Positions 1,248-53,723 of a DNA stretch of 53,723 bases are shown one piece after another. The notes beneath the pieces are model-generated. The model saw nothing but the letters and a program-made list of their open reading frames with translations. It had not been told where the DNA came from and made no database searches. The DNA is taken from positions 1-53,723 of the IMG/VR virus record IMGVR_UViG_3300000317_000004. The stretch is one strand, 5' to 3'. Each line of letters begins with the position of its first letter. Positions within the stretch are counted from its first letter, which is position 1. Position numbers and translations under genes: made by a program. This DNA is from a virus (Duplodnaviria > Caudoviricetes).

Positions 1248-1641
1248 TTGTAGTCAATTTCTGGTTGCGGAAACCATCATTAAATAGGCGGCACAAATGC
1301 AAAAGTTACCCGATAAAGTTCTTGCTCTTATTCATACGAGGCTTCAATACAGGCCAAGCGATTATGACTCAAATTTTAATTTTGTGCATCAGGAAGATGT
1401 TTTTGTAATCGCTGACTTAGCTTATTCTGTTGGCAAAGAAGAATGTGCCGCAAAGACTTTGGAAGCGCAACCAGAAACAGCGGGGCATACTCTGGAGGGC
1501 GTAGCACCTACAACAACGCAAGGAAATGAAATAGTACGCGGGTGCGACACGTGCGGTGGGTGTCCAAAAAATGATCGGCTTTGTGTTTATCCAAAGTTCC
1601 AGTGTTGGACTCCGCGCCCTACTTCACCCGTTGCGTAAACG
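1248..1641 (+). mobile_element. Integron-like gene cassette 8
   Basis: Starts G|TTGTAG (1247), complementary inverse core CTACAAC (1508), ends at G|TTGTAC (1641). Confidence 0.8.
1297..1638 (+). CDS. Cassette 8 hypothetical protein; Cys-rich tail encoded by the attC-like hairpin
   Basis: ORF runs through the hairpin; CDTCGGC...C...C lies in the loop. Confidence 0.7.
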   Translation: MQKLPDKVLALIHTRLQYRPSDYDSNFNFVHQEDVFVIADLAYSVGKEECAAKTLEAQPETAGHTLEGVAPTTTQGNEIVRGCDTCGGCPKNDRLCVYPKFQCWTPRPTSPVA

Positions 1642-1647: not shown

Positions 1648-1883
1648 AAAATTTTTTGAACCTTGGAGGTTATATGGCGCGGAAATTAAAACTGAGTGAG
1701 GCAATAGCAACGCTGCATGTAAATCACGAATTTTGGGTTGATAAAAGACGGTGTGATGCGTGGGGAGTAATCCGCGCCTACATTAAGGAAGTTCAAAAAA
1801 CTTCGCGCAACAGCGCTATGCTAAAATGCCCGCATTGTGAAAATGATATTCGTATCAAGGTCACTTCAGCATAGCGCGAACCG
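1642..1883 (+). mobile_element. Integron-like gene cassette 9 (last of array)
   Basis: 5' GTTGTACAAAATTTTTTGAAC pairs with 3' GTTCAAAAAACTTCGCGCAAC; ends at G|TTACAT. Confidence 0.82.
1674..1874 (+). CDS. Cassette 9 hypothetical protein with CPHC tail
   Basis: GGAGG RBS before ATG 1674; stop inside right arm of hairpin. Confidence 0.75.
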   Translation: MARKLKLSEAIATLHVNHEFWVDKRRCDAWGVIRAYIKEVQKTSRNSAMLKCPHCENDIRIKVTSA

Positions 1884-2902: not shown

Positions 2903-3550
2903 ATGTCGATTTTTTCGTGTCTCAAAAGTACAGATTTTAGCATCAAAGAAGGATTCCTTTTCAAAAACCCGTTCGGAATAGGATTTTTATTACTCGTGAT
3001 ATTTGTGGCGGCGCTTATTTTCGCAGGTCTTGCAACTGCGGAAACAAAAACAGAGTTTAACAGTTCATACACGTTTCATAAAGCACAAGGAAAAACTTTT
3101 CTCATTCAGTCAAAAAAACTTTCTGCAATACATGGAGACACGGCCACAGCAACAACCGATACGATTGAATACTATACATTCAGAACCACTATTCAAACTC
3201 CGGGATTTCAATTGACGAAATCCACTGAACCCGGTAAATATGTTGATTTTAACCCTTATGTCGGTATGGGATTTGGATTTGCATATACAAGACTAAAGCC
3301 AACCGGAACCGACACGAGTGAATATGCACGATGGGCTGTTCAAATTGGAGCTTTAATTACAGAATATTCGGATAGCTCAAAAAGCAAGAAACTGAATATA
3401 TGGCCAGATGTTGGTTTTTTGTTTTTGAACAACATTGTAGGGGTTCAGTTTGCATGGAACTGCGGAAACGCGCCTGGTTATGATTTTTGGGATATACATA
3501 GAGGCCTAATAGGTCTAACTGCAAACTACCAAATAACATTATCAAAATAG
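2903..3550 (+). CDS. Exported protein, possible outer-membrane beta-barrel
   Basis: Hydrophobic signal/TM segment, then amphipathic beta-strands (GMGFGFAY, VGVQFAWN, IGLTANYQI). Confidence 0.55.
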   Translation: MSIFSCLKSTDFSIKEGFLFKNPFGIGFLLLVIFVAALIFAGLATAETKTEFNSSYTFHKAQGKTFLIQSKKLSAIHGDTATATTDTIEYYTFRTTIQTPGFQLTKSTEPGKYVDFNPYVGMGFGFAYTRLKPTGTDTSEYARWAVQIGALITEYSDSSKSKKLNIWPDVGFLFLNNIVGVQFAWNCGNAPGYDFWDIHRGLIGLTANYQITLSK

Positions 3551-3611
3551 CCAGAATGCCCGTCATGCCTCTTAATAATGCACAAATCGACGGGCTATTT
3601 TTAAGGAATTT

Positions 3612-3800
3612 ATGGAAGTAAAAATGGGAGAATATCAAGCGCAAAATGGCCTGGAAATTACGTGTCATAAATGCAATACTGTTTACAATACAAAAGATGG
3701 AAATTGCCCGACATGTGAACCAAACTTTCGTGATAAAAAAATTTATGAAGGATGTTTAAAAAAAGTATTTAAGTTGGATAAGGCTTTGTACGACAAGTAA
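3612..3800 (+). CDS. Small zinc-ribbon protein
   Basis: CHKC...CPTC. Confidence 0.6.
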   Translation: MEVKMGEYQAQNGLEITCHKCNTVYNTKDGNCPTCEPNFRDKKIYEGCLKKVFKLDKALYDK

Positions 3801-7953: not shown

Positions 7954-8820
7954 TTATTTAAATGGCAACGCCTGTTGTCTTGATTCTTCTGCCGCCATTG
8001 CATCCAGCTCAGCATTTAATTTTTTCCCGTCTTCGGTAGAAATATCGCCTATATTACTTTCATCAACCCCAGAAAGTTCCTCAAATTCATCTGTCACAAC
8101 ATCCCCACGCTCGTTTGTTTCTTCATGGTCAACAACTTTTGCCATTTGATAACTTATTGGCTCTGTTTTTTGATGCCTCCGAATGCAGGTTTTTTTCTGC
8201 ATTTCCGGTTTAAATAATGGATTTTTCCAAGGCGTATCAGATTGTCCCATTCTGGCAAGAACAAGTTTTTCAATGTCGTTGATATGATACGCGTCCATTA
8301 CGTGTATTTGCTCTATACCATTACTATCAGAAAAACAAGAATAAGCGCAGATCAGTTTTCCACGATCTTTTTCTTTTAAGGCAGGCTCAAAATAATAATG
8401 TTGCCCTTTTTCATCTTCATAATATTTCCATCCTCCTAATTCAACATCTTTTTCGTAAACTAAATTTGCCCGAACGCGGAATCCAGCATCACAGGCAAGA
8501 ACCACATATCCTTTGTATCCTATCTGATAAGTCAACTTGCCGTTGTATGGAATGAAATAGATTTGCCCGAAAATCGGATCTGGATTAAGGCCGAGTTTTG
8601 GAGCATTAAAAAGACATTTTATAATAGTCTTTTTGTCAGTTACTTTAGGGTTATTTATAAACCCTTTTAATATTTGTGAGTACATTGCCCAATACTGGTT
8701 CACCTCGGCTTTTAGACGCGACGGAACAACCTGCTTGACCGCGCCTTCGTATGCTTTTAAGTTCTTTTCTCCCCCCATAAACTGTACAAGATTAAGGGCA
8801 CTTTTTAAATTTTCGTTCAT
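7954..8820 (-). CDS. recT: RecT-family single-strand annealing recombinase
   Basis: LGLNPDP..GQIYFIPY....YQIGYKG...A.LVYE.D...PW....EM.KKT.IRR..K..P. Confidence 0.9.
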   Translation of the reverse strand: MNENLKSALNLVQFMGGEKNLKAYEGAVKQVVPSRLKAEVNQYWAMYSQILKGFINNPKVTDKKTIIKCLFNAPKLGLNPDPIFGQIYFIPYNGKLTYQIGYKGYVVLACDAGFRVRANLVYEKDVELGGWKYYEDEKGQHYYFEPALKEKDRGKLICAYSCFSDSNGIEQIHVMDAYHINDIEKLVLARMGQSDTPWKNPLFKPEMQKKTCIRRHQKTEPISYQMAKVVDHEETNERGDVVTDEFEELSGVDESNIGDISTEDGKKLNAELDAMAAEESRQQALPFK

Positions 8821-20613: not shown

Positions 20614-20704
20614 TTTATTTTCCTCCTGATTTAATTGTTTTGTTTGCCTGGATTTGAGACCGCCGCCGCCGCATTACAGCCCCGAAGGGCTGCTCTCTGC
20701 GTTT

Positions 20705-27712: not shown

Positions 27713-27766
27713 AAAAGGCCGCATTGACAGACAGATTAAACACTGTTTGCCGATGTGGCCTTTTTT
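27713..27766 (+). terminator. Stem-loop with U-tract (terminator/attenuator)
   Basis: AAAAGGCCGCAT...ATGTGGCCTTTTTT. Confidence 0.65.
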
Positions 27767-27775
27767 ATTTTGATT

Positions 27776-29479
27776 ATGGACATAAAAAAACTCATATCAG
27801 AACTTCCAGTAGACGATAAAAGAACATTGTCCGCCTTTGCTGCGGCACTGGCCGACGCTGGAGCGGATGAGTTCGTTACGGTTAAAGAACCGAATTTGCC
27901 CAACCTGTCTTCCGCAGCAGTCATTCTTGTGCCTAACGGGCAAGAAGGAGAAAAAGAGCCCCGCCCAGTTGCAAAACCTGCGCCTATTGCTGCAAAGACA
28001 TACGATTTCACCGGGAATATAGTTTTCTTTGGGTTTGGAGGAGTTGCGGAATGCACATTGCCTGTATTGTTAAGACATATAAACGTTGATCCCTCAAAAA
28101 TAACCATTGTAGATATGCTTGACAAGTCTGAAGTACTTAAAGACTGGGTGGAAAAAGGTATAGTTTTTGTTCAAACTCAAATTGTTGAAAAAAACCTTAA
28201 AGACATACTGAAAAAATACCTTAAAGAAGGTGATTTTTTAATTGATGTTTGCTACGACATTGCTTGTTCGGAACTTTTACAATATTGCAAAGACAATAAA
28301 ATTTTTTATATAAACACATCCGTAGAAGAGTGGAATTATATAGACGGTTTTGATAAAAGAACCCCATACGAAAAAAGCCTGTATTCTCGCCAACAAGAAA
28401 TTGACGCTTTAATACAATCATGGGATGAAAACGACGGTGTTACTGCGATTCTTGATATGGGAGCAAATCCCGGATTAATTTCTCATTTTATGAAACAAGG
28501 ACTTGTTGACCTTGCAAAATCTCAAAAGGTCGGGACTAAAACCACGAACCGAAACGATTATGCCACGCTTGCAAAAGATTTGGGAGTTAAGGTTGTTATT
28601 GACAGCGAAAGAGATACTCAAATACTTATACGGCCTAAAGAGGTCGGTGAATTTGTTAATACCTGGAGCGTACTTGGCCTTGTAGAGGAAGCTAAAAGCC
28701 CGGCAGAACTTGGATGGGGAACGCACGAAGACGAAATTCCTGAGCATGCAACTGTACCGAAAAAAGGGCCTAAAAATCAAATCTTTTTATCACAAATGGG
28801 TATGCATACGTTCATGCGGTCGTTTGTTCCTGCCGATCCAAAAATTCCGCTTAAAGATGGCGAAGTTTCTGTTGATGGCTATGAAATAGTTGGCTGTCTT
28901 ATACGTCACGGTGAAGCATACACTATAAGTAAATTTTTAACAACAGAAGACGGTTCTTATCGACCGACTGTTTATTATTGCTATTTACCAAGTGACGCAA
29001 CAGTGGCTTCATTGCGCGAGTTTGCAAGCCAAAACTATTGTAAAGATAATGATTATAAGCCGTTGCGACAAAGAATAATGTACGAAAACGACATACTGAG
29101 CGGTTCGGATACATTAGGGGCAATGTTGGGTGGATATGATGATACTCATGTCTGGTGGTGCGGAACTTCTTTAAATATTGAAGATGCGCGAGTTCTTGCC
29201 CCATTACAAAACGCAACAACAATACAGGTTGCGATAGGGCTAACGGCTGGGATATGTTGGGCGCTTGAAAATCCTCAGAGCGGAGTGGTTAGGCCGGAGG
29301 ATTTAGATACTGAATTCGTGTTAAATATTGCCAAACCATATTTAGGAACATTTATAAGTCAAGAATATGAATGGTCACCGATTAAAAATTATATAAACCA
29401 GTATTCGGAACGAACAGACAACAATATTGACGAAACAAATATATGGGGAATTCAAAATTTTTCCTTTAAAAACACTTAA
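27776..29479 (+). CDS. hss: Homospermidine synthase
   Basis: Rossmann GFGGVA, YINTSVEEW, LYSRQ, GANPGLISHF, SERDTQ, FVNTWS..GL.EE...PAELGWGTHE, IRHGEA, YRPTVYY.Y.P, NATTIQVA. Confidence 0.9.
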   Translation: MDIKKLISELPVDDKRTLSAFAAALADAGADEFVTVKEPNLPNLSSAAVILVPNGQEGEKEPRPVAKPAPIAAKTYDFTGNIVFFGFGGVAECTLPVLLRHINVDPSKITIVDMLDKSEVLKDWVEKGIVFVQTQIVEKNLKDILKKYLKEGDFLIDVCYDIACSELLQYCKDNKIFYINTSVEEWNYIDGFDKRTPYEKSLYSRQQEIDALIQSWDENDGVTAILDMGANPGLISHFMKQGLVDLAKSQKVGTKTTNRNDYATLAKDLGVKVVIDSERDTQILIRPKEVGEFVNTWSVLGLVEEAKSPAELGWGTHEDEIPEHATVPKKGPKNQIFLSQMGMHTFMRSFVPADPKIPLKDGEVSVDGYEIVGCLIRHGEAYTISKFLTTEDGSYRPTVYYCYLPSDATVASLREFASQNYCKDNDYKPLRQRIMYENDILSGSDTLGAMLGGYDDTHVWWCGTSLNIEDARVLAPLQNATTIQVAIGLTAGICWALENPQSGVVRPEDLDTEFVLNIAKPYLGTFISQEYEWSPIKNYINQYSERTDNNIDETNIWGIQNFSFKNT

Positions 29480-50285: not shown

Positions 50286-50549
50286 ATGGCAACATCAACA
50301 GCTATAGAATTGGCAATAGATCAAGCTATAGACGAGCATATTGATAAATGCAAACAGGAACTTCCGTCAAAATTTATCATGTGGCGATGGCTTGTACCTA
50401 TTTTAATTGGAGCAATTACTGTAGTTGCCGGAGCAACATTATGGGTATCTGATCGTTTTGGAAAAGTTGAGAATCGTATGACGGCTATTGAGACATCAAC
50501 TAAATATGTAGCAGATAGAATTGACGAAGCGATAAAGTTGAAAAAATAG
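50286..50549 (+). CDS. Single-TM coiled-coil protein (holin/lysis-associated)
   Basis: TM helix then ENRMTAIET; follows endolysin. Confidence 0.5.
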   Translation: MATSTAIELAIDQAIDEHIDKCKQELPSKFIMWRWLVPILIGAITVVAGATLWVSDRFGKVENRMTAIETSTKYVADRIDEAIKLKK

Positions 50550-50576
50550 CAACTTATAAATCTGATCCTTTTTTAC

Positions 50577-50601
50577 AAGGGCGGCTTTGGTCGCCTTTTT
50601 T
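50577..50601 (+). terminator. Intrinsic terminator ending late operon
   Basis: AAGGGCGGC-TTTG-GTCGCCTTTTTT. Confidence 0.75.
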
Positions 50602-50626
50602 ATTTTGAAGAAATAATAAAAATAGT

Positions 50627-50655
50627 TTGACTCTTTTTATTTTATACATTATATT
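50627..50655 (+). promoter_or_regulatory. Sigma70-like promoter upstream of cassette array (Pc-like)
   Basis: TTGACT-17-TATATT, ATG 8 nt downstream. Confidence 0.75.
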
Positions 50656-50662
50656 TAATATT

Positions 50663-50914
50663 ATGAAAACAAAAACAACGAATATTACTGTGCCAATTCA
50701 GGTTCCGATCACAACAACAGTGGCTTTGAAACGGTTGGCATTATTAGTATCGGAAAAAGCCGGAACGTGTAATCGGAATTCAGTCGAGACCGGAACCGGA
50801 AAATCTATCAGTCATGGATATAATCATGCGTTGCTATTAGCAGCAAAATATTATGGATTAGTCGATTTGACAAAAATTGATGGTTGGTATAGTCAATATA
50901 AATCAAGGGTTTAA
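50663..50914 (+). CDS. Probable leaderless small DNA-binding (RHH-like) protein
   Basis: TVPIQVP.....ALKRLA strand-helix pattern. Confidence 0.55.
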   Translation: MKTKTTNITVPIQVPITTTVALKRLALLVSEKAGTCNRNSVETGTGKSISHGYNHALLLAAKYYGLVDLTKIDGWYSQYKSRV

Positions 50915-50978
50915 CATTATATGTTTCGCACTTGATGTAGTTGTACGCAATTGTCACCTTTTGAGTTTAGGAGTTTTT

Positions 50979-51221
50979 ATGCTTTGCGACGATATAAAAG
51001 TTATCGATTTTTTACACGACCGTGATTTTTTCCCAGACGACAATGGTGCATGGGGGCGCATAAAAAAGGTTTTGGAAGCGGTGCCAACATGCGCACAACA
51101 CACGCAGCCTACAAAGTGCCTTGGATGTGAGTATTGGCAAGGTTTACATGGTAATATTTGCATTCGTGGCAGCTCCGATCAGTATTGCGTTAAAGTCGGC
51201 ACTCAGCAGGCGGGTGCGTGA
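50979..51221 (+). CDS. Cassette 1 hypothetical protein; Cys-rich tail encoded by hairpin
   Basis: AGGAG RBS; cassette 50941-51225. Confidence 0.75.
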   Translation: MLCDDIKVIDFLHDRDFFPDDNGAWGRIKKVLEAVPTCAQHTQPTKCLGCEYWQGLHGNICIRGSSDQYCVKVGTQQAGA

Positions 51222-51231
51222 AACGTTGTAA
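51093..51231 (+). repeat. attC-like site 1
   Basis: GCACAAC-A-CACGCA-GCCT..AGTGCC ... GGCACT..AGGC-GGG-TGCGTG-AAAC-GTTGTAA. Confidence 0.85.
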
Positions 51232-51288
51232 GAAATAAACCAGCCATTTTAAATTATTATGGCGGCTCACATAAACGAAAGGTTTGTA

Positions 51289-51633
51289 ATGGAACAGTCT
51301 AAGATCGCCCGCATTTGTCACGAAGTTAATCGTGCTTACTGTCAATCAATAGGGGATTTTTCTCAGCCCTCTTGGGACGAAGCTCCTGAGTGGCAAAAAA
51401 GTTCAGCTGTAAACGGTGTTCAGTTCCACATTGATAATCCAGATGCACCGCCATCGGCATCACATGACTCTTGGCTTAAACAAAAAGCGGAGGAAGGTTG
51501 GAAGTATGGGGCTGTGAAAAATCCCGAAACTAAGGAACATCCTTGTTTTGTTCCCTACGAACAGTTGCCAGTCGAGCAGCGGGCGAAAGATTTCATATTC
51601 ACCAGTATTGTAAACGAGCTTAAAGCCGCCTAA
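51289..51633 (+). CDS. Cassette 2 RyR-domain protein
   Basis: H.SW...K...GWKYG.VK....KEHPC.VPYEQLP..QR.KD; cassette 51226-51718. Confidence 0.85.
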   Translation: MEQSKIARICHEVNRAYCQSIGDFSQPSWDEAPEWQKSSAVNGVQFHIDNPDAPPSASHDSWLKQKAEEGWKYGAVKNPETKEHPCFVPYEQLPVEQRAKDFIFTSIVNELKAA

Positions 51634-51656
51634 TTTGCGGAAGGCTGGTTTACATC

Positions 51657-51724
51657 TTACAACAGGCGCGTTACGTTCGCTTCGCCAATAGCAAGGCTAC
51701 TGCGTAACACGCCGGACGTTGTAG
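51657..51724 (+). repeat. attC-like site 2
   Basis: TTACAAC-A-GGCGCGTTACG ... CGTAACACGCC-GGAC-GTTGTAG. Confidence 0.88.
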
Positions 51725-51755
51725 TCAATTGTCAAGCGCAAAGAAAGGATATTAT

Positions 51756-51986
51756 ATGCCCGCCGAAAAATTGAAACCGTGTCCATTCTGCGGAATGAAA
51801 CTTGTTTTTCAATTAAATGGTTGGTGGGCGCATCCTGCTAATTATGGGTGTGTTTGTCCCATAGACGGTTTGCGTGTGGACGATAATACTACCTCAATCG
51901 AGGCATGGAATCGGCGGGCGGACATTAGAGAATGCGCTTGCCAACAGCCTACAACAGCCGCAGCCCAAAATACGGCAGAACATTAA
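51756..51986 (+). CDS. Cassette 3 Lar-like restriction alleviation protein
   Basis: LKPCPFCG ... C..C ... IEAWNRRA; cassette 51719-52033. Confidence 0.75.
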   Translation: MPAEKLKPCPFCGMKLVFQLNGWWAHPANYGCVCPIDGLRVDDNTTSIEAWNRRADIRECACQQPTTAAAQNTAEH

Positions 51987-52039
51987 GGATTATTGAATTT
52001 GATAGGCCGTACTTCGGGCAAGTGCGGCAAACGTTAGAG
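51949..52039 (+). repeat. attC-like site 3
   Basis: CTACAAC-A-GCCGCA-GCCC-AAAA-TACGGC ... GCCGTA-CTTC-GGGC-AAG-TGCGGC-AAAC-GTTAGAG. Confidence 0.9.
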
Positions 52040-52097
52040 GCAATATTTCTGCCAATATAAATTATAGGCGGGCGCGAAAACCAATAAAGGAGGAATC

Positions 52098-52541
52098 ATG
52101 GAATTAACAAGCAGCAACGTTGATACAGTATTAGAAGATTGCCTATTTGATCACAAGCCGAGCGATGCGGAAAAGATTTCTTCTCCATCGGCTGACGGGA
52201 TTATGGCAACATTTCACTTTGACCCAAAGAAACTTTCTATCCACAAAGAAGATATATGTTCCATGCTCGCCGAATTACCGGACGCTTTTCAACAGGACGG
52301 TGGCGGAGGTATGTCATTTTTAAACGCCTGCATAACTCGCAGCGGCAACCAGTGGGGCGAGCATAGAAGTATAGATTTACTTTTTATGTTAGGCATGGCA
52401 ATCGGAAAAGTGAAATGTTGCTTTTCAAGAGAAATGTGGAATACTCTTCCTGGCGGGATGCCGTATTACGTAGTTCTTAAAGACGCGCCCGCAGAAAAGC
52501 AAGGAATGGCAGAAACACAGCCTCTAACAGCGGTAGGCTAA
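52098..52541 (+). CDS. Cassette 4 conserved phage hypothetical protein
   Basis: AGGAGG RBS; LP..F....GGG.SFL.AC....G.QWG.H...W..LPGGMPY; cassette 52034-52594. Confidence 0.8.
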   Translation: MELTSSNVDTVLEDCLFDHKPSDAEKISSPSADGIMATFHFDPKKLSIHKEDICSMLAELPDAFQQDGGGGMSFLNACITRSGNQWGEHRSIDLLFMLGMAIGKVKCCFSREMWNTLPGGMPYYVVLKDAPAEKQGMAETQPLTAVG

Positions 52542-52600
52542 AATGCCGGTTAGCAATATGCGGTCTTACGGCACTTCAGCCGTACCGCAACACGTTGTAC
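52522..52600 (+). repeat. attC-like site 4
   Basis: CTCTAAC-A-GCGGTA-GGCT-AAAA-TGCCG ... CGGCA-CTTC-AGCC-G-TACCGC-AACAC-GTTGTAC. Confidence 0.9.
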
Positions 52601-52632
52601 AAAAGTTTTAACGCTTTTATTAAGGAGTTTTA

Positions 52633-52893
52633 ATGCGCGTGTACGACATACAAATAGTGGATGAGCATATCTGTGCCACTGATCCGTCACAAAAGGTGTT
52701 GGACTCATGGGTGCGCATTAAAAAGGACGCTGCGGAGGCGTCAAAACCTTCGCACAACGTTCGCGATTATGCGGCGGCGCTTCGTGTACTTCACGAATAT
52801 CGTGCTTTGCCAACTACCAGTGGTGTTTCGACACTTTTTGATAGCTGGGTAAGGCAGCGCCTCAATTCGGCCAAAGCGCCGAACTGCGCATAA
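52633..52893 (+). CDS. Cassette 5 hypothetical protein, translated through hairpin
   Basis: AAGGAG RBS; cassette 52595-52902. Confidence 0.75.
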   Translation: MRVYDIQIVDEHICATDPSQKVLDSWVRIKKDAAEASKPSHNVRDYAAALRVLHEYRALPTTSGVSTLFDSWVRQRLNSAKAPNCA

Positions 52894-52908
52894 TCGCGAA
52901 CGTTGTAT
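52752..52908 (+). repeat. attC-like site 5
   Basis: GCACAAC-GTTCGCGATTATGCG..CGGCGCTT ... AAGCGCCG..CGCATAATCGCGAAC-GTTGTAT. Confidence 0.88.
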
Positions 52909-52960
52909 GCAATTTGCAAACCTTCTGAAATTATAGGCCGCGCCAAGAAAGGATAAAGAC

Positions 52961-53281
52961 ATGCTTGCAGAATATCAGGCGCAGAATCAAACCGATGAGA
53001 ACGGCAACCCCACGGGCGGCAGCGTTCGAGGAACTGGGCTCGCGGTCGATTGGCAAAACGGCCCCCTGGGTCGCGGCGAAGATCGGAAGGAACCGAACGG
53101 TGCATTTGTCGAGACGGTTATTGATGCCGCCCGGCAGCGTATCGAGTTTTATCAAGCCTCACAGTTTAAGTGTCGCGAGAATGCCATCGCTATCACCAAG
53201 CTGGAAGAGGCGCTTCTTTGGCTTAACAAACGCACGGCTGACCGCGAGAAGCGGAATGTCGAAGGCGAGCACAAAATCTAA
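52961..53281 (+). CDS. tad1: Cassette 6 Tad1-family anti-Thoeris nucleotide sponge
   Basis: WQNGP...NG....VI.....RI..YQ...F.CRENA.AITKLEEALLWL..RT.DR..RNVEG matches the Tad1 C-terminal signature as I recall it; cassette 52903-53341. Confidence 0.82.
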   Translation: MLAEYQAQNQTDENGNPTGGSVRGTGLAVDWQNGPLGRGEDRKEPNGAFVETVIDAARQRIEFYQASQFKCRENAIAITKLEEALLWLNKRTADREKRNVEGEHKI

Positions 53282-53323
53282 AACCAAGAGGCGCGGCGGG
53301 ATAATGCGGAAGGTTTGCAAACA

Positions 53324-53347
53324 GCACACGTGCGGCAAACGTTGTAT
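53324..53347 (+). repeat. Internally deleted attC-like site 6
   Basis: GCACAC joined directly to GTGCGGC-AAAC-GTTGTAT (same right end as site 3). Confidence 0.75.
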
Positions 53348-53382
53348 GCAATGCCTGCCGAACCATGTTATAGGAGGCGCAC

Positions 53383-53723
53383 ATGACAAACGAGCAGTTT
53401 AGGTCTCTCCGTCGAGGCAATGTTATACGTGAGGGTTGTTCTGGTACGGCTTACGTCGTAGACGCGCACTATGGTGACTTCGTAATAGCTATGAAATCGA
53501 TGCACGTCAGTAACCCTTCAGAATGGGAATTGTGCGCCTCTGAAAACAGTGGAGCGGTTGCGCTTGATGATGTTCGGGCTATTGTTTTTGGTCGCGGGGA
53601 TAGTGTTACCAAAATGAAAAAAGTGCAAGATCTAAATTATGTTACCGACAGAAATCTTTCCGATGACTTCTGGTCAATCAGGGGGGGGGGGTGGAGTAAT
53701 GGAATAAGTAATTTTATATTTTG
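53383..53723 (+). CDS. Cassette 7 ORF, continues across origin to TGA at 60-62 (119 aa)
   Basis: GGAGG RBS; open frame MTNEQFRSLRRG...NPSEWEL...RGGGW through the G11 tract. Confidence 0.65.
   Translation, partial: MTNEQFRSLRRGNVIREGCSGTAYVVDAHYGDFVIAMKSMHVSNPSEWELCASENSGAVALDDVRAIVFGRGDSVTKMKKVQDLNYVTDRNLSDDFWSIRGGGWSNGISNFIF
53681..53723. repeat. Terminal overlap identical to 1-43
   Basis: Exact match. Confidence 0.97.

Follow-up and report, generated by a model that had tools for sequence, protein, structure and literature searches.

The 53,723-nt window analysed here, which is the whole stretch of DNA given by the tailed-phage IMG/VR record IMGVR_UViG_3300000317_000004, carries a row of small cassettes (C1 to C9) in which the two ends of each cassette are complementary to one another over about 45 nt. 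The question raised by this locus is what such long inverted repeats, different from cassette to cassette, do around single phage genes. The termini of the window overlap by 43 nt; the contig is circular, and the array at the window end thus continues at the window start. We conclude that the locus is a cassette array of the integron type, located in a tailed phage in which no recombinase gene was found. In our preferred reading the complementary ends, hereafter the left and right arms, make up the outer half of a composite recombination site on a single strand, which is complete only when the two ends of the same cassette meet, and we give this reading a probability of roughly 0.5.

An earlier note, made from the sequence alone, had described a segmented terminal inverted repeat in every cassette of the window. 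The nine third stems that it listed are all exact complements of 7-11 bp (Table 1), and its example of an outer stem, that of C2, is 90% complementary over 21 nt. Outer stems were also found in C3, C4, C5 and C9 (17-19/22 anchored matches), in C1 (17/22, with a 1-nt bulge) and in C6, which pairs at 73% over 40 nt and has lost the terminal AAC, its right end reading CACAC instead of YAAC. In C8 the second stem pairs at 12/12 positions (1258-1269 / 1466-1477), and about 30 nt are inserted in the right arm before the closing TACAAC at 1509. The word "every" went too far for C7, which has a third stem and a partial second stem only, the outer right arm having decayed.

Based on a strict scan (anchored GTT...AAC, ungapped, at most 800 nt apart), five pairs with at least 17/22 matches were present in the window, all of them in the array and none in the other approximately 49 kb. 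A looser scan, in which a 1-nt bulge and a distance of up to 2500 nt were permitted, gave six matches at the same threshold in the 4.7-kb array compared to four AT-rich, signature-less matches in the 48.5 kb of backbone. Shuffled controls were weaker than the window, as the earlier note required, with 1-6 pairs at 16/22 or better in 20 Markov-shuffled genomes and 10 in the window itself.

By motif scans, the same architecture was found in seven further IMG/VR contigs (G001-G007), in a 9.3-kb contig binned into a metagenome-assembled genome (MAG; G009:C371), in a 251-kb contig of a Fibrobacteres MAG (G008:C32) and in 58 of 80 metagenome loci. The search pattern GTTGTANNCAATTGTCA matched 72 loci, approximately the chance expectation, with two true arrays, and the pattern ACAACAGCCGCAGCC gave no arrays among the inspected loci of the matches listed. 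The first set comprised 67 cassettes, and 204 distinct cassettes were collected overall after three spurious pairs and the duplicates had been removed.

Inward from the cassette ends, the arms form stem 1 (9 bp), an A.A/A.C mismatch, a hypervariable stem 2 (10 bp), an internal loop with motifs and stem 3 (7-11 bp). The left-arm consensus is GTTR-N5-AA-T-(stem 2)-CTYTGAAATTATAG-(stem 3), and that of the right-arm reverse complement is GTTR-N5-TG-T-(stem 2)-CTTCCTTAATTTTCT-(stem 3), with an AAGGAAG-like motif on the coding strand of the right arm. The asymmetry between GTTR-N5-AA-T in the left arm and A-CA-N5-YAAC in the right arm is conserved, and both strands of the internal loop hold conserved motifs. 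The recurring mismatch reported previously was recovered, with A.A at position 10 in 38/66 and A.C at position 11 in 46/66 arm pairs, and so was the TTATAG-like motif preceding the third stem (125/178). Of the 204 distinct cassettes, 178 have a third stem of at least 7 nt, which in 171 of them begins 33-42 nt from the left end.

The earlier statement that the sequences differ and the pairing is kept holds throughout the family. Positions 12-21 are Watson-Crick paired in 60-66 of the 66 arm pairs, all four pair types occur at each of the ten positions, and the stem-2 10-mers make up 58 distinct words among 67 cassettes. Overall, stem 2 is 96% paired across the 66 arm pairs, a percentage that is inflated by construction, as are the others for stems 1 and 2, because the catalogue was selected for at least 17/22 matches in these two stems. 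The third stem and the comparisons of own with other partners lie outside this selection. Stem 2 pairs at 9.57/10 positions with its own partner versus 4.35/10 with the right arm of another cassette, the longest exact run of the third stem is 8.48 versus 4.77, and the predicted arm duplex energy is -46.1 versus -20.4 kcal/mol, the own duplex being more stable in 67/67 cases. Covariation was counted on end-anchored arms because MAFFT lost the register of the variable stems, and RNAalifold, applied to 20 short cassettes aligned in this way, gave stem 1 only. No matching family was found for the arms and hairpins in an Rfam search. The idea that the mismatches favour G.T wobbles on the bottom strand was weakened: A/G differences dominate, yet at the fixed positions 6, 8, 11 and 15, and T/G differences are also common.

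A canonical integron from a plasmid of Thiodictyon, in which IntI is accompanied by divergent small open reading frames (ORFs), served as the control. Twelve of its 13 GTTRRRY boundaries reach 11-14/22, which corresponds to the core alone, and the one exception brackets an inserted IS91-type element with the adjacent integrase gene. In this one control array classical cassettes thus match at the short core, the core match being all that they need according to the earlier note, and extended pairing is therefore not general to integron cassettes.

A second structure had been overlooked by the earlier note. Between each right arm, which ends in YAAC, and the next left arm, which begins with GTT mostly after AAAC, ACAC or GGAC, a separate hairpin is found; these hairpins, including the strongest inverted repeat of the region, are part of the mobile unit. 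Thirty-nine inter-cassette hairpins (48-149 nt) fold in an attC-like manner, in the order R box, asymmetric spacer (5' side 1 nt, 3' side 4 nt), 6-bp stem, bulge of 0-3 nt on the 3' arm and second 6-bp stem. These are followed by an internal loop of AA/CA, one more stem and a variable loop, at the end of which TTATAGG is frequent. An attC site consists of an R box formed by R'' (..AAC) and R' (GTT..), an unpaired spacer, an L box that carries extrahelical bases, and a variable loop (Nivina et al. 2020; PMC7439510), and the inter-cassette hairpin has this design. In a consensus fold of 12 hairpins from six contigs, compensatory changes were present at 8/13 pairs, so that folds and covariation together show what is expected of integron attC sites, namely an imperfect hairpin of which the structure rather than the sequence is kept. 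By fold, the window has at least seven attC-like hairpins, and no integrase was found in it. A simple AAC...GTT detector saw only two hairpins of the window array, and its blanks near two intI genes of the Fibrobacteres MAG are uninformative.

The extent of the mobile unit became visible from one cassette that is near-identical in G001 and G005 amid different neighbours. The identity runs from C^GTT (the caret marks the unit boundary) through the ORF, the right arm and a 76-nt hairpin to the GTTAGGC of the next unit. The mobile unit is thus the stretch from the left arm through the hairpin, as expected of an integron cassette. In 122/175 cassettes, among them C1, C3, C4, C5, C8 and C9 of the window, the ORF continues beyond the right arm and has its stop codon within the hairpin, and unrelated proteins therefore share a C-terminal tail that is encoded by the site.

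In sequence comparisons the arms are better preserved than the genes that they flank. When G001 is compared with G002, a 167-nt unit can be aligned in its arms only, and stem 1 shows an exchange of C-G for T-A. The arms of window C3 and of its G004 homologue are near-identical around a diverged interior, and in stem 2 one A-to-G change is compensated by T-to-C on the opposite side (A-T to G-C). In G004, one combination of left arm, leader and right arm also surrounds unrelated ORFs in two cassettes (L274 7565-8073, 509 nt; L275 1730-2026, 297 nt). The second of these stands alone, about 20 kb from the main array and behind a degenerate half-hairpin.

The earlier note had asked for a fold of the circularised form. 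We modelled junctions with DNA parameters, in which each right arm with its hairpin was followed by one of two left arms: that of the next cassette, which reproduces the array, or that of the same cassette, which reproduces an excised circle. The circle junction had the better energy in 39/39 cases, with means of -41.8 versus -28.2 kcal/mol for the top strand and -45.1 versus -28.1 kcal/mol for the bottom strand. In the array R'' faces the R' of the next cassette, and therefore only the 4-6 shared core bases can pair; in these models the 9-bp R box, the mismatch loop and the barcode stem form only when the cassette's own ends are joined. Since the full helix arises only from own ends, we interpret the terminal inverted repeat as one component, the outer half, of a composite site.

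The textbook example of a recombination site recognised by shape instead of sequence comes from integrons, whose integrase recombines the folded bottom strand, and at the attP of the CTX phage an enzyme of the Xer family acts on a folded single strand. The present site may be used in a similar way. The mobile unit comprises C^GTT, the left arm, the ORF, the right arm to YAAC and the AAC...GTT attC-like hairpin of 50-150 nt, and its own ends would meet in an excised circle or when the cassette is looped out on single-stranded DNA (ssDNA). The arms would then lengthen the hairpin into one long imperfect helix, which from outside to inside would consist of the third stem, the internal loop, the private 10-bp barcode stem, the A.A/A.C mismatch, the fully paired 9-bp R box, the spacer, the L stems and the terminal loop. 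Because the barcode is private, only the cassette's own two ends would rebuild the full site. We infer that this helix would form in vivo and would be read as a folded strand by a host Xer-like tyrosine recombinase supplied in trans, with the crossover probably at GTT. Consistent with an ssDNA site, the stems begin at the core GTT/AAC, at fixed distances from the cassette ends, and they are kept wherever the ORF stops relative to the right arm. The proposal of the earlier note that the whole cassette folds as an ssDNA recombination substrate thus fits the placement, the conservation and the fold energies, and we retain it as a proposal and not as an observation.

A candidate for this type of enzyme was found on G009:C371. 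A 288-aa Xer-like tyrosine recombinase is encoded there in the same orientation as an array of at least nine bracketed cassettes, and its gene ends 16 nt before the first GTT of the array. Its best model is of the XerA type (202 bits, cut-off 220), the integron-integrase model TIGR02249 giving 149 bits (cut-off 265), and its closest solved structures are archaeal XerA proteins, ahead of Vibrio IntI4. In an alignment with a genuine IntI of the Fibrobacteres MAG, this recombinase has gaps at the IntI-specific insertion, which is the defining feature of integron integrases. A homologous C-terminus of 40 aa is in the same position before the first cassette of metagenome locus L302. No relatives of the recombinase were found in the viral contig collection. 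The Fibrobacteres MAG encodes two full integron integrases (428 and 427 bits) on other contigs, and within the 16-19 kb around these two genes no bracketed cassettes were present. On G008:C32, about 18 kb upstream of the cassettes, there is a fragment of a recombinase that shares 35% identity with the G009 enzyme and is interrupted by assembly gaps. These cassettes (L294/L295, at about 41-51 kb) are large, have the same end grammar and by eye include a DinD/Bro-like ORF and a DUF2075-like ATPase, both of a defence-like kind.

Several observations weigh against a composite site served in trans. Scans of the window with Pfam (68 ORFs) and PHROGs (51 ORFs) detected neither a recombinase family, tyrosine or serine, nor a transposase family, and the G009 recombinase as query gave nothing in the window, G001, G003, G004 and G005. 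With no recombinase found in the window or in the four other phage contigs, the acting enzyme is therefore assumed. An IntI-domain integrase adjoining the array, by which an integron is recognised, was found neither in the window nor in the G009 sister array. The adjacency of a recombinase was seen in two contigs, in one of them as a 40-aa C-terminus only, and for an enzyme lacking the IntI insertion an action on folded single strands would be an analogy. In the bracket the GTT/AAC end of the R box marks the stem base and is widely separated from the mismatch loop, an arrangement reverse to that of a canonical attC, so that the bracket alone is not an attC. The strand preference is weak, the bottom strand folding better in 44 and the top strand in 23 cases. 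The selection of the catalogue on stem 1-2 pairing has to be counted here as well, and the G001/G005 boundary would also fit homologous exchange inside conserved junctions. Finally, in the only sequencing run listed with this DNA, which consists of assembled contigs and may be the source of the window, no joints, deletions or circle junctions were seen, the contigs being silent on excision; no RNA run with this DNA was listed.

Other explanations of the arms were weighed against these data. They could act at the RNA level, the 5' and 3' segments of a transcript pairing and thereby controlling translation, protecting the ends or making an RNase III site. We regard this as unlikely, although the genes all lie on one strand behind the terminator-like and promoter-like site at 50577-50655, the right arm carries the Shine-Dalgarno-like AAGGAAG and the left arm the promoter-like TGAAATTATAGG, and the duplex energies of own and other arms given above are those predicted for RNA. 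The earlier note had the third stem often covering the start codon. This is correct for C1, C3, C5, C7 and C9 of the window; family-wide the overlap occurs in only 43/175 cassettes, the start codon being downstream, by a median of 14 nt, in 123/175, and a fold that masks the ribosome-binding site or ATG is not supported as a general function. The position of the stems is set by the cassette ends and not by the start codon, and the stems are retained whether the ORF ends before (25), inside (28) or beyond (122) the right arm (n = 175, crude ORF calling). Moreover, the sense-strand mismatches are A.A/A.C and not G.U, G.U is rare in stems 1 and 2, the antisense strand folds slightly better and stem 1 is the recombination core itself. 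Were the left-arm motif a promoter, stems 1 and 2 would be upstream of the transcript start. A somewhat smaller likelihood was given to an arrangement as in the PeSLs (promoter-early stem-loops) of T4-type phages, reportedly also a subject of Comeau and colleagues in 2014. In such an arrangement the hairpin and left arm would form a terminator-promoter unit shuffled by homologous recombination, with the inverted repeats as a side effect. PeSLs are stem-loop and promoter modules between small phage genes, which mediate shuffling and mini-circles (Arbiol et al. 2010, PMC2839356). The phage encodes RecT and an exonuclease, a hairpin, left arm and 5' leader are common to the window and G001 ahead of unrelated ORFs, and the identical arms around different ORFs in G004 fit as well. 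This explanation predicts shared direct repeats, however, and not private, covarying inverted barcodes. None of the four promoter-like sites in a sigma-70 consensus scan of 50500-53723 (5.4 expected from shuffles) is in a left arm, none of the terminator-like sites is at a cassette junction and no hairpin has a T-run. The same cassettes are moreover present directly behind a tyrosine recombinase in a bacterial contig and on a Fibrobacteres chromosome contig.

The same G004 arm pair around unrelated ORFs would also agree with a relic of cassette genesis, in which an ORF landed in the loop of a palindromic "empty chassis" and the arms have no present mechanical role. The inter-cassette hairpins do share the stem-AA/CA-stem grammar and often have TTATAGG in the loop. 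Neutral relics would decay, yet stem 2 remains paired at the level given above with all four pair types, the arms are better kept than the coding interior and the C3/G004 change in stem 2 is compensatory; we therefore rank this idea lower still. By far the least probable is that each cassette is a small transposon or foldback element moved by a transposase. It has terminal inverted repeats with conserved tips, and one G001 cassette contains, by eye, an IS200/IS605-type tnpA-like ORF. This ORF occurs in one of nine arrays and is placed like an insertion, the units abut at the same GTT without target duplications, the copies lie in arrays and the shared unit extends to the hairpin beyond the right repeat. 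As the repeats differ except at the tip, one transposase could not read them by sequence.

In comparison to integrons and to clusters of attC sites lacking integron-integrases (CALINs), the array shares co-oriented one-gene units, the GTT start, an end formed by an imperfect AAC...GTT hairpin with R box, spacer, bulges and variable loop, a hairpin structure kept by covariation with variable sequence, and the occurrence of one cassette with different neighbours, the identity ending at the next GTT core. No integrase was found in the phage, which also agrees with CALINs (Qi et al. 2023; PMC9892861). CALINs are formally called from two or more attC sites under the IntegronFinder model with no integrase nearby. 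Unlike in integrons, the complementarity between the start and R'' extends over about 45 nt in three stems, compared to about 7 bp canonically (11-14/22 in the control array), a 2x2 A.A/A.C mismatch follows the 9-bp R box, and conserved motifs are on both strands of the internal loop. In addition, the R' core is mostly GTTGTA instead of GTTRRRY, and the sole array-adjacent recombinase observed is Xer-like, co-oriented and without the IntI insertion. PeSLs (PMC2839356) resemble the present modules in being conserved between small non-essential genes, better kept than these genes and with circular intermediates proposed. They differ as direct repeats with homologous recombination, and a private inverted repeat per gene is not reported for them. 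The present family has no sigma-70 promoter in its left arms by consensus scan, and it is also found in bacterial DNA beside a tyrosine recombinase. The pdif modules of Acinetobacter plasmids (PMC7399989) are likewise bracketed by inverted recombination sites, but these are double-stranded sites of about 28 bp with protein-read arms common to all modules. Here no dif-like internal palindrome was seen on direct reading of the arms, and the paired segments are private and covarying, which points to base pairing and not to sequence reading. In the literature outside subscription journals CALINs in phages and PeSLs are described, and neither a cassette-bracketing complementarity nor such an Xer-like platform was found. 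The arms are apparently an undescribed extension of integron-type recombination sites, and most likely they belong to an extended, self-checking site of an integron-like kind, on which a non-IntI recombinase would act in trans. A further-reaching proposal, which we make tentatively and consider rather doubtful, is that these arrays form a cassette-capture system of Fibrobacteres-Chlorobi-Bacteroidetes (FCB) group bacteria, represented here by the Fibrobacteres MAG, and their phages that is separate from classical integrons. In such a system an Xer-like non-IntI enzyme would work on folded single strands, the whole cassette would be a stem-loop, the barcodes would rebuild the site only for a complete, correctly excised cassette, and phages would swap anti-defence genes (Tad1/Acb2-like, Lar-like, RyR).

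Table 1. Cassettes, stems, ORFs and hairpins of the array in window coordinates; segments that pair are separated by a slash, and the caret marks a unit boundary.
Feature	Position	Strand	Details
C1 bracketed part	50940-51099	+	left arm 50940-50982, right arm 51058-51099
C1 third stem	50974-50982 / 51058-51066	+	9 bp, covers ATG
C1 ORF	50979-51221	+	continues through right arm; no Pfam or PHROG family
attC-like hairpin after C1	51100-51224	+	...CAAC, stems, ...GAAAC^GTT; contains 3' end of C1 ORF (fold)
C2	51225-51663	+	left arm 51225-51267, right arm 51624-51663; third stem 7 bp (51261-67/51624-30)
C2 ORF	51289-51633	+	RyR domain, Pfam PF02026, E 1.9e-11
attC-like hairpin after C2	51664-51717	+	54 nt (fold)
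C3	51718-51955	+	left arm 51718-51766, right arm 51911-51955; third stem 9 bp (51758-66/51911-19)
C3 ORF	51756-51986	+	Lar-like (restriction alleviation); PHROG 599, E 2.1e-7; Pfam Lar 26.1 bits, below cut-off 28.6
attC-like hairpin after C3	51956-52032	+	77 nt, AGCCGCAGCC...GTGCGGCAAAC type
C4	52033-52528	+	core GTTAGA; left arm 52033-52076, right arm 52484-52528; third stem 9 bp (52068-76/52484-92)
C4 ORF	52098-52541	+	phrog_26039, E 1.7e-38
attC-like hairpin after C4	52529-52593	+	65 nt (fold)
C5 bracketed part	52594-52758	+	left arm 52594-52638, right arm 52713-52758
C5 third stem	52628-38/52713-23	+	11/11 bp, covers ATG
C5 ORF	52633-52893	+	continues past right arm
attC-like hairpin after C5	52754-52906	+	stems 52754-52773 / 52887-52906, 20/20 complementary; strongest inverted repeat of the region
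C6	52902-53329	+	left arm 52902-52944, right arm 53290-53329; third stem 8 bp (52937-44/53290-97); terminal core degenerate
C6 ORF	52961-53281	+	Tad1/Acb2-like; Pfam PF24729, E 2.7e-6, 27.9 bits (cut-off 27)
hairpin remnant after C6	53330-53340	+	11 nt
C7	53341-53548	+	left arm 53341-53383; right side third stem 53531-53540 (10 bp)
C7 ORF	from 53383	+	enters poly-G tract at window end
C8	1247-1514	+	left arm 1247-1295; third stem 8 bp (1288-95/1444-1451); ORF 1297-1638
C8 split right arm	1444-1514	+	third stem 1444-1451, stem 2 1466-1477, insert of about 30 nt, TACAAC 1509-1514
C9	1641-1811	+	left arm 1641-1683, right arm 1771-1811; third stem 8 bp (1676-83/1771-78); ORF 1674-1874
hairpin after C9	1813-1831 / 1859-1877	+	then CC^GTTACA at 1881, array end

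The cargo of the window array comprises the RyR-domain, Lar-like and Tad1/Acb2-like proteins together with several unknowns (Table 1). The Pfam scores of the Lar-like and Tad1/Acb2-like proteins are both close to the cut-offs, and C6 has a blastn match to a Bacillus phage region annotated Tad1. Positioned after the lysis genes, the array looks like a store of accessory or anti-defence genes. Just upstream of it are a terminator-like hairpin with a T-run (50577-50598, +) and, after this hairpin, the best sigma-70-like site of the region, TTGACT-17-TATATT (50627-50655, +). Between C7 and C8 the array is split by an AT-rich segment of about 1.2 kb (53681-53723 and 1-1246; ORFs 162-416 and 442-1167), which starts at a poly-G run of 11-12 nt inside the terminal overlap of the contig, the run that the C7 ORF enters; a low-depth contig departs from the window sequence at 53678. 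Among the small + strand ORFs just downstream of the array an Rfam abiF RNA motif is found (3559-3595, +; 51.1 bits, gathering score 37).

Pfam and PHROG scans placed the terminase, portal, major head protein, tape measure and endolysin genes on the + strand and RecT and the exonuclease among the - strand genes. At the head of the - strand gene block a Type-P5 twister ribozyme match is present (20648-20701, -; 38.3 bits, gathering score 37.6). The nearest isolated phages remain distant, the best identities being 39% for the terminase and 36% for the capsid, and an endolysin query found no close relatives of the phage in the viral contig collection. A full comparison with the G001 backbone gave a single gene in common, so that the idea of a backbone kinship between the two was weakened; their arrays sit in unrelated phages. 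This gene, the sole protein common to both (55% identity), is saccharopine-dehydrogenase-like and is located within the head-gene block (27755-29479, +). The tnpA-like ORF of G001 (L077 about 3314-3704, -; G001 reverse-strand 8180-8570) follows the left arm and precedes the ORF proper to the cassette, with a small hairpin of its own upstream.

If the arms are needed for recombination, the minimal attC of R box, spacer and L box would not be the sole solution for a recombination site, a cassette could check its own completeness, and the arms would offer a natural design for orthogonal, barcode-specific recombination sites. More than 200 cassettes have this larger segmented structure, in which the paired parts are private and the unpaired parts conserved. 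The genesis of cassettes is a long-standing question, and the arms behave as a reusable chassis, with the same arms around unrelated ORFs and a grammar shared with the hairpins. In the window, a virus that has no recombinase appears to take anti-defence genes from a cassette pool that it has in common with bacteria.

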